64,000 bases of DNA. Origin: Gemmatimonadales bacterium. Its GTDB lineage: Bacteria > Gemmatimonadota > Gemmatimonadetes > Gemmatimonadales > GWC2-71-9. The stretch is from NCBI GenBank assembly GCA_050733195.1, contig JBOHSH010000114.1, forward strand, positions 5,389-69,388, given 5' to 3'. The stretch's first letter is position 1; the number at the start of each line of letters is the position of its first letter. The notes below the pieces were generated by a model, which ran no database searches, was not told the origin of the DNA, and was given only the letters and a program-made list of their open reading frames with translations. This document shows positions 541-63,014 of this stretch, piece by piece. Position numbers and translations under genes: made by a program.

Positions 541-582
541 CTAGCCCCTAGCCTAGCCCCTAGCCCCTAGCCCCTAGCCCCC
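541..582. repeat. tandem heptamer array (CCCCTAG)n, about 6 units
   Basis: ctag cccctag cctag cccctag cccctag cccctag ccccc read directly. It lies between the ubiE stop and the ubiA-like start. The ubiE stop TAG (567-569) is inside the array. Confidence 0.9.
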
Positions 583-1295
583 TCGTGAATAGCACATACC
601 CCGCCGAGCAGCAGCCGATACCGCACCGAGCCGAATCCCGCCGCTTCGAGGCGCATGCGCAGCCCGTCGGCGTCGGGGAACAGCTCGACCGACGCTGGCA
701 GGTAGGTATACGCGTTTCTATGTTTCGAGATCAGTCGTCCGATCAGCGGCAGCACGCGCCGGAAGTACGCGAGATACACTCCCCGGAGCAGCTGTCGGCG
801 CGGGGTGGTGAACTCGAGGATCACGAGTCGCGCGCCGGGCTTGAGCACCCGCGCCAGCTCCCGGAGGCCGGCATCGAGATCGACGAGGTTCCGCACCCCG
901 AAACCCACCGTCGCGCCGTCGAACGTCCGGTCGCCGAACGGCAGCTCGAGCGCGTCCGCGTTGCACGGCACGACGCGCGCCGCCTTCCCGCGGCCCTGCA
1001 CCAGCATCTCCTGAGCGAAATCGGCGGCGACGACCCGCCCGCGGAACTTGGCGCGATTCGCGAGCTCGGCCGCGAGATCCAGCGTGCCCGCACAGGCATC
1101 CAGGTAGGTGCCGTCCGGCCTCGTTTCGAAGTCCAGACGGTCCACCGTCAGCCGTCGCCACCGGCGATCGAGGTTCGCGCTGAGGAGATGATTGAGGAGG
1201 TCGTACCGGGGCGCGATCGAGCGGAACATCCCCCGCACGTAGTCCCGCTTCTGCGGCCCGCTGGTGACCGGTAACTCCCTGTCCGTGGCGAACAT
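567..1295 (-). CDS. ubiE: demethylmenaquinone / ubiquinone C-methyltransferase
   Basis: 242 aa. Carries the UbiE/MenG N-terminal signature KRDYVRGMFRSIAPRYDLLNHLLS and the SAM-binding site LDACAGTLDLA; length is typical. Confidence 0.9.
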   Translation of the reverse strand: MFATDRELPVTSGPQKRDYVRGMFRSIAPRYDLLNHLLSANLDRRWRRLTVDRLDFETRPDGTYLDACAGTLDLAAELANRAKFRGRVVAADFAQEMLVQGRGKAARVVPCNADALELPFGDRTFDGATVGFGVRNLVDLDAGLRELARVLKPGARLVILEFTTPRRQLLRGVYLAYFRRVLPLIGRLISKHRNAYTYLPASVELFPDADGLRMRLEAAGFGSVRYRLLLGGVCAIHEGARG

Positions 1296-1363
1296 AGCCG
1301 CCGAATGTAGCCCGCCGGGATGCCGGCTGGCAACTCGCCGTCCAGGGCTTCGCGACGCCGGCC

Positions 1364-1996
1364 GTGGCTGAGCCCTCTCCGCCAGGCCAGAGCCCTCTCC
1401 CCGCCGACCTCCGGACCGCCACCGACCAGGAGGTGGTGCGCGAGGCCCGGAAGGGCGCCGACGCCGCGCACCGGGAGCTGGTGCGGCGGTACGAGCGCCC
1501 CGTGTTCTCGCTCATCTACCGGATGGTACGGAACCGCGAGCTCGCCGAAGACCTCTCGCAGGAGACGTTCATCAAGGTCTTGAACGCGCTCGAGTCCTAC
1601 CGCCCCGAGTTCAAGTTCTCGTCCTGGGTCTTCAAGATCGCCAACAACGCGGCGATCGATCACTTGCGCCGGCGCGAGCTCGACACGCTCTCGCTGGAAG
1701 GCTCTCCGCACGCCGAGACTCCGCAGATGATCGAGGCCACCGCGCTCCAGATCGGGGAGCGGGGCGAGACCGCGCTCGAGGCCGTGGAGAACAAGGAGCT
1801 GGGCGGAGAGATCGAGCGCGCCATCGCGAAGCTCCGCCCCGAGTACCGCACCTGCATCCTGCTGCGCCACGTCGAGGGCCGCGCCTACGAGGAGATCGCC
1901 GAGATCCTGAATCTCCCTCTCGGCACGGTGAAGACCTACATCCACCGCGCGCGAAACGAGCTGCGGATCGCGCTCGCACACCTGAAGACCGAATGA
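1364..1996 (+). CDS. ECF (sigma-24 type) RNA polymerase sigma factor
   Basis: 210 aa, GTG start. Region 2 (HRELVRRYERPVFSLIYRMVRNRELAEDLSQETFIKV) and the region 4 HTH (RAYEEIAEILNLPLGTVKTYIHRARNEL) are both present. Confidence 0.9.
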   Translation: MAEPSPPGQSPLPADLRTATDQEVVREARKGADAAHRELVRRYERPVFSLIYRMVRNRELAEDLSQETFIKVLNALESYRPEFKFSSWVFKIANNAAIDHLRRRELDTLSLEGSPHAETPQMIEATALQIGERGETALEAVENKELGGEIERAIAKLRPEYRTCILLRHVEGRAYEEIAEILNLPLGTVKTYIHRARNELRIALAHLKTE

Positions 1997-1997
1997 A

Positions 1998-2037
1998 AGA
2001 ACCCAGAACCCAGAACTCAGAACTCAGAACGCAGAAC
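1998..2037. repeat. tandem heptamer array (AGAACYC)n, about 6 units
   Basis: agaaccc agaaccc agaactc agaactc agaacgc agaac, immediately after the sigma-factor stop (1994-1996). Confidence 0.9.
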
Positions 2038-2092
2038 TTTCAGTTTGGAACGTGAAACCCGCACGTGAACCGTGCCGTACTGGGGGACGCTT

Positions 2093-61526: not shown

Positions 61527-61654
61527 GGCTGGCTGGGGACTGGGGACTGGGGACTGGGGACTGGGGACTAGGGTTGAGGAGCCAAAACTACCGCGCGCAG
61601 ACAAGTCTCCTAGCTCCCCAGTCCCTAGTCCCTAATCCCTAGCTCCCTACCTCA
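61527..61654. repeat. inverted pair of (GGGGACT)n and (TCCCTAG/AGTCCCC)n arrays
   Basis: Left arm 61527-61579 (ggctgg ggactgg x5 ..ggactagggttgagg), a spacer of about 27 nt, right arm 61607-61654. The nucleotidyltransferase stop TAG (61639-61641) is inside the right arm. Confidence 0.9.
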
Positions 61655-62616
61655 GAGTGGTCCCCCAAACTCGCGCTCCCCCGGTAATCACGGACGATCA
61701 CGTCATTGCCCAGCATGCTCTGCGTGAGCCGAGAGCCATGGATCCGGCAATCGCGGCCCACCAGGGAGTGCGAAACCTCGCTGTCGGCGATGGTGGTGCC
61801 CCGCTCGACGGTGACGTTGGGCCCGATGGTGGAGCGCTCGATGGTGACAGCGTCCTCGATCAGCACGGGCTCGTGAACCGTCACGCCTGCGCCCACGGCG
61901 CCCCGGCGGGCCGCGCCCTTCCGGAGCAGGATCTCGTTGGTCTCGAGCAGGGTATCCAGCTTGCCGCAGTCGTACCACCCGGCCACTTCCGCGGTCCGGA
62001 TCTTCCGGCCCTGTTCGATCATCCACTGGAAGGCGTCGGTGAGGAAGAACTCCCCCTTGTTGGGCGGAGCGGCGAGCACGACGTCGATGCCCTGCCAGAG
62101 CGCCTCGACGTCGCGAATGTAGTAGAGCCCGATGTTCGCCAGCCGGGAGATCGGCTCGCTCGGCTTCTCGACGATGCGGGTCATGTAGCCGTCGCGATCG
62201 GTCACCACGACGCCGAAGCGCTGGTAGTCCTCGACCTCCTTGGCCCAGATGATCCCCGCCGCGTCGGTGCGATGGATGATGGAGAGATCGGCCTCGAAAA
62301 CCGTGTCGACGAAGACGATCATCACCGGGCCGGTCACGAGCGGCCGCGCCAGGTTGACCGCGCCCGCGGTGCCGTCCTGCACCCGCTGCTCGATGTAGCG
62401 GCACGGGATGCCGTAGCGCCCGCTGGCGTACGCCTCGACCTGCTCCTTGAGATGGCCGGTGATGATGATCAGCTCGGTGATATGCACCGGCTCCAGCGTA
62501 TCCATCACCCAGTCCATCACCGGCCGGCCGGCCACCTTGAGCATCGGCTTCGGGATGAGGTGGGTGTGGGGGCGGAGCCGAGTGCCCTTCCCGGCGAGGG
62601 GGATGATGACCTGCAC
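61639..62616 (-). CDS. sugar-phosphate nucleotidyltransferase with C-terminal left-handed beta-helix
   Basis: 325 aa. IIPLAGKGTRLRPHTHLIPKPML (GxGTRxxP), followed by hexapeptide repeats at the C-terminus. Confidence 0.85.
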   Translation of the reverse strand: MQVIIPLAGKGTRLRPHTHLIPKPMLKVAGRPVMDWVMDTLEPVHITELIIITGHLKEQVEAYASGRYGIPCRYIEQRVQDGTAGAVNLARPLVTGPVMIVFVDTVFEADLSIIHRTDAAGIIWAKEVEDYQRFGVVVTDRDGYMTRIVEKPSEPISRLANIGLYYIRDVEALWQGIDVVLAAPPNKGEFFLTDAFQWMIEQGRKIRTAEVAGWYDCGKLDTLLETNEILLRKGAARRGAVGAGVTVHEPVLIEDAVTIERSTIGPNVTVERGTTIADSEVSHSLVGRDCRIHGSRLTQSMLGNDVIVRDYRGSASLGDHSEVGS

Positions 62617-62617
62617 G

Positions 62618-62974
62618 TCAGCTCCTTCCGTACCGGTCCGAGAGCCGCACCAGGTCGTCGAGCTCAGGGGTGGAGGCCTCGAGGACGTCGCTGTCCTGCA
62701 CCGCCTCGAGCTCGTGGATGGTCTTCGGGGTGATGCGGACCGAATCCCCGGGCTTGAGCCGGCGCTCCTCGCGGCCCGCTCCGTCCCCCAGCCAGAGGAT
62801 CAGCTCGCCGCGGAGGACGTGCATCGTCTCGTCCTTCACGTTGTGATACTGGCAGCTCAGGCGGTGCCCGGCGTTCACGTGGAGGACCTTGCCCACGTAC
62901 CGGTCGGTGCGGGCCCAGACCAGCTCGTAGCCCCAGGGCTTCTCGACGCGATACGGCACGCCCGCCTCAGACAT
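62618..62974 (-). CDS. cupin-domain protein (type II phosphomannose isomerase C-terminal-like)
   Basis: 118 aa from ATG 62974. VEKPWGYELVWA...YVGKVLHVNAGHRLSCQYHNVKDETMHVLRG. The track start TTG 62989 lies in the repeat. Confidence 0.8.
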   Translation of the reverse strand: MSEAGVPYRVEKPWGYELVWARTDRYVGKVLHVNAGHRLSCQYHNVKDETMHVLRGELILWLGDGAGREERRLKPGDSVRITPKTIHELEAVQDSDVLEASTPELDDLVRLSDRYGRS

Positions 62975-62982
62975 GAAGGCTC

Positions 62983-63014
62983 CTGTCAACCGTCAACCTT
63001 TACCGTTCTACCGG
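62983..63014. repeat. heptamer cluster (TGTCAAC CGTCAAC CTTTACC GTTCTAC)
   Basis: ctgtcaaccgtcaacctttaccgttctaccgg. The ferredoxin stop TAA (63000-63002) is inside it. It shares CGTCAACCTTT with the loci at 7855 and 20111. Confidence 0.75.

Follow-up and report, generated by a model that had tools for sequence, protein, structure and literature searches.

The 64,000-nt stretch of DNA analysed here (contig JBOHSH010000114.1, hereafter the window) comes from an uncultured soil bacterium of the Gemmatimonadales, represented by a metagenome-assembled genome (MAG), and it carries at many of its gene boundaries tandem arrays of 7- or 8-nt units, which are the subject of this work. The GC content is 70% overall and 68–74% along the length of the window, and the encoded IMPDH and MFS proteins are 100% identical to proteins deposited as "MAG: ... 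[Gemmatimonadales bacterium]". Gene calls from two independent models, one based on codon log-odds and the other on composition, agreed at 64 of 67 stop codons, and Pfam scans of 60 open reading frames (ORFs), representing nearly all of the called genes, confirmed most calls and corrected two; the ORFs outside these scans are annotated in an independent assembly, or are short, or are cut by the window edge. The genes are all of the housekeeping type and include IMPDH, SNF and amino-acid (AA) transporters, molybdenum cofactor (Moco) biosynthesis, a dap/lys operon, ETF, CstA and an MFS transporter, among others. The scans found no transposase, reverse transcriptase, RAYT or cas gene among the window proteins, only housekeeping families, as the original prediction, which was made from the DNA letters alone, had stated for transposase and cas genes, and there are no tRNA genes in the window. 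As described below, the arrays form a class that is confined to gene ends, anchored at stop codons, polar and often paired, and their units are specific to a genome and are replaced over time.

The arrays were located with Tandem Repeats Finder (TRF), which gave about 30 rows of period 7 or 8, together with a separate periodicity scan and inspection by eye, and every family named in the original prediction was present at the sites listed for it. When at least 3.3 copies and a match of at least 84% are required, the window contains 18 period-7 arrays compared to 0.06 expected from first-order Markov simulations that keep the dinucleotide frequencies, and two period-8 arrays compared to 0.02 expected; periods 4–6 and 9–12 are at background. 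The feature is real and is specific to 7-base units and, less often, to units of 8. Copy numbers range from 2.4 to 13 (the TRF maximum is 12.9) with no peak at four units. An independent assembly, GCA_975101925.1, which is 99.8% identical to the window over 7.6 kb with no gaps, reproduces the arrays and their copy numbers, and six of the 15 single-nucleotide polymorphisms (SNPs) that separate the two fall inside the 100-nt junction between the IMPDH and SNF-transporter genes. Identical arrays in that assembly and similar structures in many unrelated ones rule out an assembly artefact. One Logan contig terminates within the IMPDH–SNF junction array.

Only 3,303 nt, or 5.2% of the window, is intergenic. 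A placement scan that grouped the repeats slightly differently gave 22 strong period-7/8 arrays with a total of 949 nt, and 86% of these array bases are intergenic. With 86% of their bases in 5.2% of the window, the arrays make up about 25% of all of the intergenic DNA. This bears out the original proposal of STRR-like tandem heptamer and octamer families at gene boundaries without accompanying cas or transposase genes. The claim that they occupy most gene junctions was too strong, as 29 of the 67 junctions are 25 nt or longer and arrays are present in 14 of these. Among those of at least 25 nt, arrays are found in 11 of 21 co-directional, both of the two convergent and one of six divergent junctions, and three shorter convergent junctions carry short arrays as well. 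Hence, the arrays belong to the 3′ ends of genes rather than to promoter regions. The same is evident when the lineage is considered more broadly, where 40 of 138 post-stop regions contain arrays (29 of period 7 and seven of period 8), and in 23 of these 40 the array starts 0–3 nt past the stop codon. The first 45 nt past the stop have an excess of G over C of +9 in regions with an array versus 0 in those without one. Post-stop regions contain 1.5 stop triplets per 45 nt versus 0.7 of their complements; as this excess is only about two-fold and several families lack stop triplets, stop-codon content is excluded as the whole cause of the polarity and is a partial cause at best.

The main structural fact, which the original prediction overlooked, is that many of the arrays are inverted pairs forming long hairpins that abut stop codons. 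There are six such pairs in the window, at 11011/11121, 40284/40355, 43197/43310, 58629/58682, 59215/59283 and 61533/61604, and, whichever strand is read, all six begin with the G-rich or G/T-rich arm. Folded as RNA, the junction hairpins have energies of −53.7 to −87.7 kcal/mol, and all six pairs give z-scores between −3.3 and −9.2, with none of 200 shuffled sequences folding equally well. Solitary arrays are unstructured (z of at least 0). When seven related loci are included with the window, G exceeds C in the 5′ arm of 27 of the 34 junction hairpins of at least 18 bp, and the reverse is seen in five. The two arms of one hairpin have different dominant variants, for example GTGCTGA versus CAGAACC and GTTCTGA versus CCAGAAC, as predicted by slippage within each arm, and the two largest hairpins in the window contain a systematic mismatch, one per unit. 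In a tally of fold energies with a margin of more than 2 kcal/mol, about 24 junctions favor the antisense strand and about 14 the sense strand. Selection on the structure of the sense-strand RNA, by way of the asymmetry between G-U and A-C pairs, is unsupported, since the antisense strand folds better more often. The individual arrays of the window are as follows.

539..581, minus strand (sense): (CTAGGGG)~6, covers the 34 nt separating the UbiE-methyltransferase stop (567) from the following start (532)
1998..2038, plus strand: (AGAACYC)5.7, GTTCTGR family on the C/A-rich strand, 1 nt past the stop of the sigma-70 (ECF-type) gene at 1996, solitary
5371..5386, plus strand: (GGCTCCCY)2, in the 20-nt convergent junction of the H-NOX and ParA-like genes
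6756..6777, minus strand: (ACGGACAG)2.8 on the sense strand, from the DHH stop to the NifU start
7837..7867, unstranded: short GGTTGAC/GGTCAAC palindrome with CTTT motif, the TCA at 7859-7861 being the AA-permease stop codon
11011..11071, plus strand: (GTTCTGG)8.7, hairpin arm in the junction between the IMPDH stop and SNF-transporter start
11121..11176, plus strand: (CAGAACT)7.9, inverted partner of the 11011 arm, whole junction −87.7 kcal/mol, z = −7.6
20093..20122, plus strand: (CGTCAAC)~3, in a 24-nt convergent junction, the last unit containing the TerB stop codon (20114-20116)
21116..21165, plus strand: (GTTCTGA)7, perfect, 4 nt from the TerB start (the sense strand reads TCAGAAC), solitary
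21164..21216, plus strand: (CGTCAAC-like)7.6, joined to the 21116 array
21807..21877, plus strand: (GGCTCCCT)8.9, the sole array in a divergent junction (DUF2911 and peptidase M48), RNA unstructured, z = +0.4
23864..23889, plus strand: (CCCCGTT)3.7, with the TerC stop on one side and the end of the ThiF-rhodanese domain on the other, the ThiF ORF continuing through it
37555..37582, plus strand: (GCTCCCTG)3, covers the whole 16-nt spacer from the dapD-like stop to the UPF0047 start
39029..39065, plus strand: (GGCCGTCC)4.6, n-region of the serpin lipoprotein signal peptide
40284..40327, plus strand: (GTTCTGA)6, 5′ hairpin arm in the convergent junction of the serpin and GGDEF genes
40355..40385, plus strand: (AGAACTC)4, 3′ arm of the 40284 pair, junction −58 kcal/mol, z = −6.9
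43197..43288, plus strand: (GGGTTCT)13, hairpin arm in the junction between the nadC-like stop and the ETF-QO start
43310..43376, plus strand: (CAGCACT/CAGAACT)9.6, partner of the 43197 arm, −83.5 kcal/mol, z = −9.2
47229..47247, plus strand: (GGGAGCCG)2.4, octamers, found by TRF
47259..47322, plus strand: (GGGGAAC)9, solitary, the sense RNA (GUUCCCC)9 being C-rich and unpaired, z = +1.3
55551..55581, plus strand: (AGACGGGC)3.9, octamers, adjoining the start of the gene at 54928-55542
55592..55647, plus strand: (CCGTTCC)8, which is GGGGAAC on the sense strand, directly past the stop of the SDR gene
58629..58678, plus strand: (GGGGAAC/AGGGAAC)7, 5′ hairpin arm in the convergent junction of the CstA and MFS genes
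58682..58719, plus strand: (CCCGTTC)5.4, 3′ arm, encodes the MFS C-terminus (TVNGER*), fold −62.4 kcal/mol, z = −5.9
59215..59248, plus strand: (GGGGAAC)4.4, inside the MFS gene, central cytoplasmic loop
59283..59322, plus strand: (CCGTTYA)~5, partner arm within the MFS loop, fold z = −3.3
61533..61573, plus strand: (GGGGACT)5.9, hairpin arm between the NTP-transferase stop and the DUF885 start
61604..61649, plus strand: (AGTCCCT)6, partner of the 61533 arm, −53.7 kcal/mol, z = −3.8
62983..63002, plus strand: (CGTCAAC)2.9 with CTTT, from the Fer4 stop to the Shine-Dalgarno (SD) sequence and start of the cupin gene

Grouped by unit, the families and their sites are:

GTTCTGR family: 1998, 11011/11121, 21116, 40284/40355, 43197/43310
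GGGGAAC family: 23864, 47259, 55592, 58629/58682, 59215
CGTCAAC/GGTTGAC family, short, with 2–3 clean copies: 7837, 20093, 21164, 62983
CCCCTAG and GGGGACT: 539 and 61533/61604, respectively
Octamer GGCTCCCT: 5371, 21807, 37555, 47229
Octamer GACGGGCA: 6756, 55551
Motif (C/G)GTCAACCTTT: 7857-7867, 20112-20122, 62991-63001, 55586-55596

Different families are concatenated at 21116-21216, 47229-47322 and 55551-55647, as had been proposed. A flank motif, CGTCAACCTTT, has four matches in the window at no more than one mismatch compared to 0.24 expected; its predicted recurrence held at 7857, 20112 and 62991, the variant listed at 59305 was not recovered at no more than one mismatch, and there is an additional match at 55586. 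The minus-strand genes that end at 7859 and 20114 close their reading frames with ...AAA GGT TGA inside this motif, such that two unrelated genes have their last two codons and their stop codon in common with the repeat element.

The arrays also enter coding sequence, and more often than the single intragenic insertion of the original prediction, as the MFS and ThiF ORFs both have arrays reaching into their 3′ ends and another array lies in a lipoprotein signal peptide. The MFS gene (58694-59932, minus strand) has its central cytoplasmic loop (59205-59330) encoded by arrays that form a hairpin inside the ORF. Its homologues of 58–67% identity, one of which is at 10001-11257 in the related locus L330, have related arrays at the same loop with a 7-residue periodicity (VSGER, VNGER, VNGK) that corresponds to three heptamers, or 21 nt, and this periodicity argues that the array has long been resident in the coding region and has changed in 21-nt steps. 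The possibility of a recent mobile insertion in frame, which would have revealed an empty site, is excluded, since the homologues are equal in length and have related arrays at the same loop. The ThiF-rhodanese ORF (23720-25006, minus strand) stays open for about 50 codons past its last Pfam domain, through an (AACGGGG) array, and has 134 nt in common with the 3′ end of the convergent TerC gene (22906-23853, plus strand). In this manner, arrays that lack stop triplets can lengthen ORFs and mislead annotation. The signal peptide of the serpin-family lipoprotein has a positively charged n-region, AVRPCGRPAV, that is encoded by the octamer array (GGCCGTCC)4.6 at 39005-39070 (plus strand).

Syntenic loci were drawn from relatives with 84–89% identity in IMPDH, found by way of IMPDH homologues, and 120 metagenome contigs were also gathered with a back-translated C-terminal motif. 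The layout of the junction past IMPDH recurs in the relatives, namely stop codon, array, loop, inverted array, SD sequence and start codon, and the unit differs each time. The units found past the IMPDH stop include CGAGCTAG, GTGGTTC, GGTGNGA, GAGGATT, GTCGTTA, GGAGTGA, GTCGTGA, TGAACGG and AAAGGGG, with at least 15 different units across the relatives. With strict thresholds, 12 of 44 Gemmatimonadales-like contigs have an array at this junction, all with different units, as do three of 63 less similar contigs. The junctions following the permease, NTP-transferase and SDR stop codons are, like that of IMPDH, occupied in relatives by different units. Locus L330 is syntenic to the 47–63.6 kb region of the window and, from the sequences read by eye, four of six comparable junctions are occupied in both, again with different units, and five L330 junctions carry GGCAGGA. 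The 59 related loci, 519 kb in total, contain 56 period-7 arrays built from 36 distinct units. Overall, the position is kept and the unit is not, each genome favors a few units, and density varies between genomes.

Two related loci depart from the simple layout. At 14831-15344 in L124 there are about seven tandem copies of a unit of about 70 nt (GGTGAGAGGGACCTGTCGAGCGCCTTGACTGGCTGGCATCCTCGCC...) before the DHH gene, followed by partial inverted copies, and the same junction holds heptamer or octamer hairpins in other genomes. In L240, the first ~110 nt past the IMPDH stop contain (TGGGTGG)n and (CACCACC)n on either side of a canonical terminator, GGATGGCCCGCG...CGCGGGCCATCC followed by TTTTTT, which suggests that arrays can grow outward from an existing terminator stem in both directions.

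The close relatives provide insight into how the arrays change. In three near-identical pairs (the window and locus L001 of GCA_975101925.1, L118 and L120, and L122 and L123, with 99.6–99.9% identity) no array differs in copy number. These stable copy numbers, together with neighbors that are housekeeping genes, exclude phase-variable contingency loci, which vary in copy number among close strains and are tied to surface or virulence genes. On the other hand, L118 and L119, which are 98.8% identical, differ in that one junction hairpin is wholly replaced (7458-7551 in L118). The cassette is of the GGAGGCA type in L118 and of the CGAGCTAG type in L119, with the latter also being found at that junction in more distant relatives, and the replaced segment begins exactly at the stop codon and ends about 15 nt short of the following start. 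The swap is located at the edge of a 1.2-kb tract within the SNF-transporter gene (6258-7430 in L118) that has 2% SNPs versus ~0.15% elsewhere, which points to import by recombination, and its position at the tract edge indicates that cassettes change by discrete events that move with homologous recombination. Unit turnover at a junction is quick and includes the replacement of whole cassettes by recombination, with few favored units per genome. A separate cluster of differences is seen between L122 and L123, which are otherwise 99.9% identical, as 12 of their 19 SNPs lie in the last 270 nt of the overlap (14063-14330), which ends at the L123 contig end. This region corresponds to the 3′ part of the AA-permease gene and lies immediately upstream of a hairpin junction, and it may be a hot spot of recombination or of strain heterogeneity near a cassette.

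The GTTCTGR unit is by no means limited to these organisms. Arrays of (GTTCTGR)4 are present at no fewer than 115 loci (a lower bound) in a species-level genome collection and their hosts, among the matches listed, include Acidobacteriota, Chloroflexota, Planctomycetota, Verrucomicrobiota, Bacteroidota, Nitrospirota, Cyanobacteria, Vibrionaceae, Patescibacteria, Streptomyces and others, with GC contents of 30–75%. Also among the matches listed, the arrays of other phyla often lie directly past stop codons and some are inverted pairs, with a gene abutting the 5′ side of the array in 62 cases and the 3′ side in 31. The idea that GTTCTGR is a privileged unit common to phyla must nevertheless be rejected, as in IMG/VR it is found at eight loci versus 28, 20 and 27 for three composition-matched permuted heptamers. 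Because the permuted controls are as widespread, the presence of the same heptamer array in many phyla is no indication that these phyla share a system. Arrays of this kind are formed by any heptamer, with no special status of the unit, and their grammar is a general one.

How do the arrays compare with known systems? The STRR sequences of heterocystous cyanobacteria, reportedly described by Mazel et al. in 1990, are families of tandem heptamers, with STRR1 being CCCCAGT, STRR2 TTGGTCA and STRR3 CAACAGT. The reverse complement of CCCCAGT, once rotated, gives GGGGACT, and we take the GGGGACT array at 61533-61573 to be STRR1 on the other strand. The two systems have in common tandem heptamers, several families per genome and a location in non-coding DNA; they differ in that the present host is a member of the Gemmatimonadales with another GC content, and the other window families match none of the STRR units. 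Xanthomonas genomes, which have a GC content of about 65%, offer another point of reference. The original prediction implied that a multi-family system would be new for a GC-rich, non-cyanobacterial genome, but heptanucleotide long simple sequence repeats (LSSRs) had already been reported for Burkholderia, Actinobacteria and Xanthomonas by Mrazek, Guo and Shah (2007), who found them to be the commonest long-unit class of large, high-GC genomes (summarized in PMC4679880 and PMC4692102). LSSRs have units of 5–11 nt, with heptamers dominant, that are arranged head-to-tail and longer than chance, are mostly intergenic, are typical of the genomes of non-pathogens and were proposed to originate by slippage (PMC4679880, PMC4692102). 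The window arrays resemble them in having head-to-tail units beyond chance (18 versus 0.06, and 2 versus 0.02) and in units not divisible by three being concentrated in intergenic DNA (86% of array bases in 5.2% of the window), and they differ in having several co-existing families, frequent inverted pairs and a host in the phylum Gemmatimonadota.

An even closer match in terms of placement is provided by the intergenic heptamers GGGAATC of Xanthomonas and GGGGA(C/T)T of Nostoc, for which there is no known function (Rehm, 2015; PMC4692102). In these the repeat is nearest the 5′ neighboring ORF, is G-rich on the coding strand past a stop and on the non-coding strand before a start, is rare between divergent genes, and is found between the same gene pairs in related species with varying length and sequence and with inverted copies; each unit carries a run of at least three G that can form G-quadruplex (G4) structures, and four units are preferred (PMC4692102). 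The polarity rule in our case is identical (62 versus 31 for the abutting gene, 27 versus 5 for the hairpin arms, one of six divergent junctions, and a G−C skew of +9 past the stop), the same junctions are occupied in relatives, and GGGGACT itself is present in the window. The implied novelty is further reduced by the placement rule that is shared with GGGAATC and by the many phyla that have (GTTCTGR)4. The differences are that four units are not preferred in the window and hairpin pairs are dominant, and that G-runs are found only in the GGGGAAC, GGGGACT, CTAGGGG and GGGAGCC families, such that most families (GTTCTGR, CGTCAAC and the octamers) cannot form G-quadruplexes. The heptamer TAACTGA of marine Beggiatoaceae is found at 169 junctions in a Beggiatoa relative, with no mechanism given; it has a forward orientation before start codons, is rarely inverted, is often a few nt from starts that lack an SD sequence, and its spread is unexplained (MacGregor, 2015; PMC4679880). 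Like the window families, it is one heptamer re-used at many junctions, although TAACTGA is absent from the window arrays and these are anchored mainly to stop codons (PMC4679880). Hence this class of repeat is already described, in the form of heptanucleotide LSSRs, STRR, Xanthomonas GGGAATC and Beggiatoa TAACTGA, and the Gemmatimonadales case adds to it. In the papers searched, we found no report of such repeats in Gemmatimonadota, no repeat catalogue for that phylum, and no paper that contains the (GTTCTGA)2 string.

The closest functional analogue is the REP/BIME/REPIN group, which are extragenic palindromes at gene 3′ ends in co-directional or convergent arrangements, with genome-specific families and inverted pairs, and with roles in mRNA stabilization and termination (PMC2817692, PMC3116915, PMC3733652). 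REPs are single conserved palindromes of 20–40 bp whose head is GTAG or CGTC, and they are linked to a RAYT gene (PMC2817692, PMC3116915, PMC3733652). The window likewise has six inverted pairs and its arrays lie at gene 3′ ends, but the arms are tandem heptamers and the copies of a family have only the unit in common, with differing loops and flanks. No shared REP head was seen among the array copies, where no formal motif search was run, and the window proteins include no RAYT. CRISPR is ruled out, as its repeats are 24–48 nt with unique spacers whereas the window units are 7–8 nt and spacer-free, and there are no cas genes. The array hairpins resemble intrinsic terminators in having a GC-rich stem-loop and differ in that no U-tract follows directly, and the lack of U-tracts excludes canonical intrinsic terminators as an explanation. 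T-runs are in fact scarce, with TTTT occurring 12 times and T5 once in 64 kb, and none of the array hairpins in the window has a U-tract behind it. The window is essentially devoid of canonical U-tract terminators, and from this near-absence of T-runs and of U-tracts after array hairpins it follows that the organism probably relies little on canonical intrinsic terminators. The sole Rfam match in the window, unrelated to the arrays, is a SAM-II riboswitch (SAM_alpha, RF00521; 26729-26802, minus strand) that scores 41.8 bits compared to a gathering score of 36. It is located upstream of a PALP-family gene (25286-26521), and Rfam describes the family as alpha-proteobacterial while the host here is a Gemmatimonadales MAG.

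We propose, giving it an even chance of being correct as a whole, that the arrays are born by slippage and inverted duplication and are filtered by purifying selection, and that the paired ones serve as REP-like punctuation of gene 3′ ends, a function that we infer. The arrays would grow by replication slippage and many would have gained an inverted copy, giving the arrangement gene end, (G-rich units)n, loop, (C-rich units)n, gene end, with each arm being homogenized separately. As their placement shows, they persist only in non-encoding DNA, filling the spacer from the stop codon on, and avoid the promoter-only, divergent junctions. Their polarity would probably be set by purifying selection, with C-rich, unstructured RNA being disfavored right past a stop codon and G-rich, SD-like or structured RNA being disfavored right before a start codon, and this selection would also keep the arrays out of promoters and coding DNA. 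The transcribed pairs would be very stable stem-loops at transcript 3′ ends, similar to REP/BIME, and by analogy could provide punctuation through termination, pausing or 3′-end protection, as well as insulation of neighboring genes. The scarcity of U-tract terminators in the window leaves room for a terminator-like role of the array hairpins.

Several observations weigh against this proposal. Slippage alone leaves unexplained the presence of the same unit at five or more unlinked junctions, and the re-use of a few units at many unlinked junctions is the one fact that no simple model explains. The lack of any copy-number change in three close strain pairs means that slippage is not fast. One mismatch per unit in the two largest hairpins argues against strong selection for pairing, and the lack of a folding advantage of the sense RNA gives no sign of selection on the transcript itself. 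Moreover, 32 of 44 relatives have no clear array at the IMPDH junction, and the density of period-7 arrays by our tally is ~0.3–0.4 per kb in the window and L330 and ~0.05 per kb over the other loci, and this several-fold variation, together with the empty junctions, indicates that the arrays are dispensable.

One alternative is that the arrays are purely neutral or selfish DNA with no role in the cell, with slippage-prone repeats and their fold-back copies accumulating in the only unconstrained DNA of a compact genome and all rules of placement arising from purifying selection, and we consider this to be possible, if rather unlikely. It would account for units that are not conserved (36 distinct heptamers in 56 arrays at 59 loci), for the differences in density between relatives, for the many orthologous junctions that lack arrays, for arms that drift apart with no folding advantage of the sense RNA, and for permuted control heptamers being found at 28, 20 and 27 loci in IMG/VR versus eight for GTTCTGR. 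It does not readily explain why the same junctions are repeatedly occupied in lineages that have different units, nor the strict polarity, and units that are common within a genome need more than random seeding. The persistence of the MFS-loop array across homologues of 58–67% identity is also difficult to reconcile with neutrality.

The re-use of families at unlinked junctions (GTTCTGR and GGGGAAC each at five in the window, and GGCAGGA at five in L330) would be accommodated by non-autonomous mobile palindromes of the REPIN type, moved by a RAYT or a similar single-strand transposase or recombinase that is encoded elsewhere, which insert beside stop codons and replace one another. Such elements would also fit the REPIN-like inverted pairs and 3′-end location, the L330 copies that have a common inner stem GGCAGGAACC...GGTTCCTGCC with different loops, and the clean swap between L118 and L119 from the stop codon to ~15 nt before the start. 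However, the window contains no transposase, conserved termini, shared loops and target duplications are absent from the copies, the swap is situated at the edge of a tract of homologous recombination, which explains it without transposition, and the in-frame MFS arrays are old rather than a recent insertion, all of which makes mobility of this type improbable. At least as doubtful is the broader idea that trans-acting, family-specific machinery targets the position just past stop codons and installs or exchanges cassettes there, in the form of a REPIN/RAYT-like transposase or a templated repeat-adding enzyme, but if true it would explain the re-use of units within a genome, the different units at the same junctions, and the clean L118/L119 swap. 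Finally, that the arrays are multivalent sites for a sequence-specific RNA- or DNA-binding protein, or are G-quadruplex/i-motif elements, that regulate the flanking genes is very unlikely, since, while several are 2–5 nt from called starts without an SD sequence (11006, 21112, 43194 and 61526), matching the proposal for Beggiatoa TAACTGA (PMC4679880), GGGGAAC, GGGGACT and CTAGGGG have G-runs of the kind shown to form G4 (PMC4692102) and each genome prefers a few units, GTTCTGR, CGTCAAC and most of the relatives' units lack G-runs, copy numbers of 2.4–13 show no preference for four units, the flanking genes are unrelated housekeeping genes, and unit turnover at orthologous sites would force the binding protein to change as fast.

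Bacterial tandem heptamer families have reportedly been known since the work of Mazel et al. in 1990, yet to our knowledge nobody has explained either their function or their spread. The present case extends this class to the Gemmatimonadota, and the comparative facts narrow the options, in that the position is kept and the unit is not, arrays are anchored at the stop codon, arms evolve separately and whole cassettes can be swapped between near-identical strains. Having the G-rich arm first, in six of six window pairs and 27 of 34 hairpins across loci, is a further constraint, as is a copy number that is stable over 0.1–0.4% divergence. There are practical consequences as well, as the arrays break short-read assemblies, exemplified by the Logan contig that ends in an array, and they extend or blur the ends of ORFs and so affect the annotation of MAGs.

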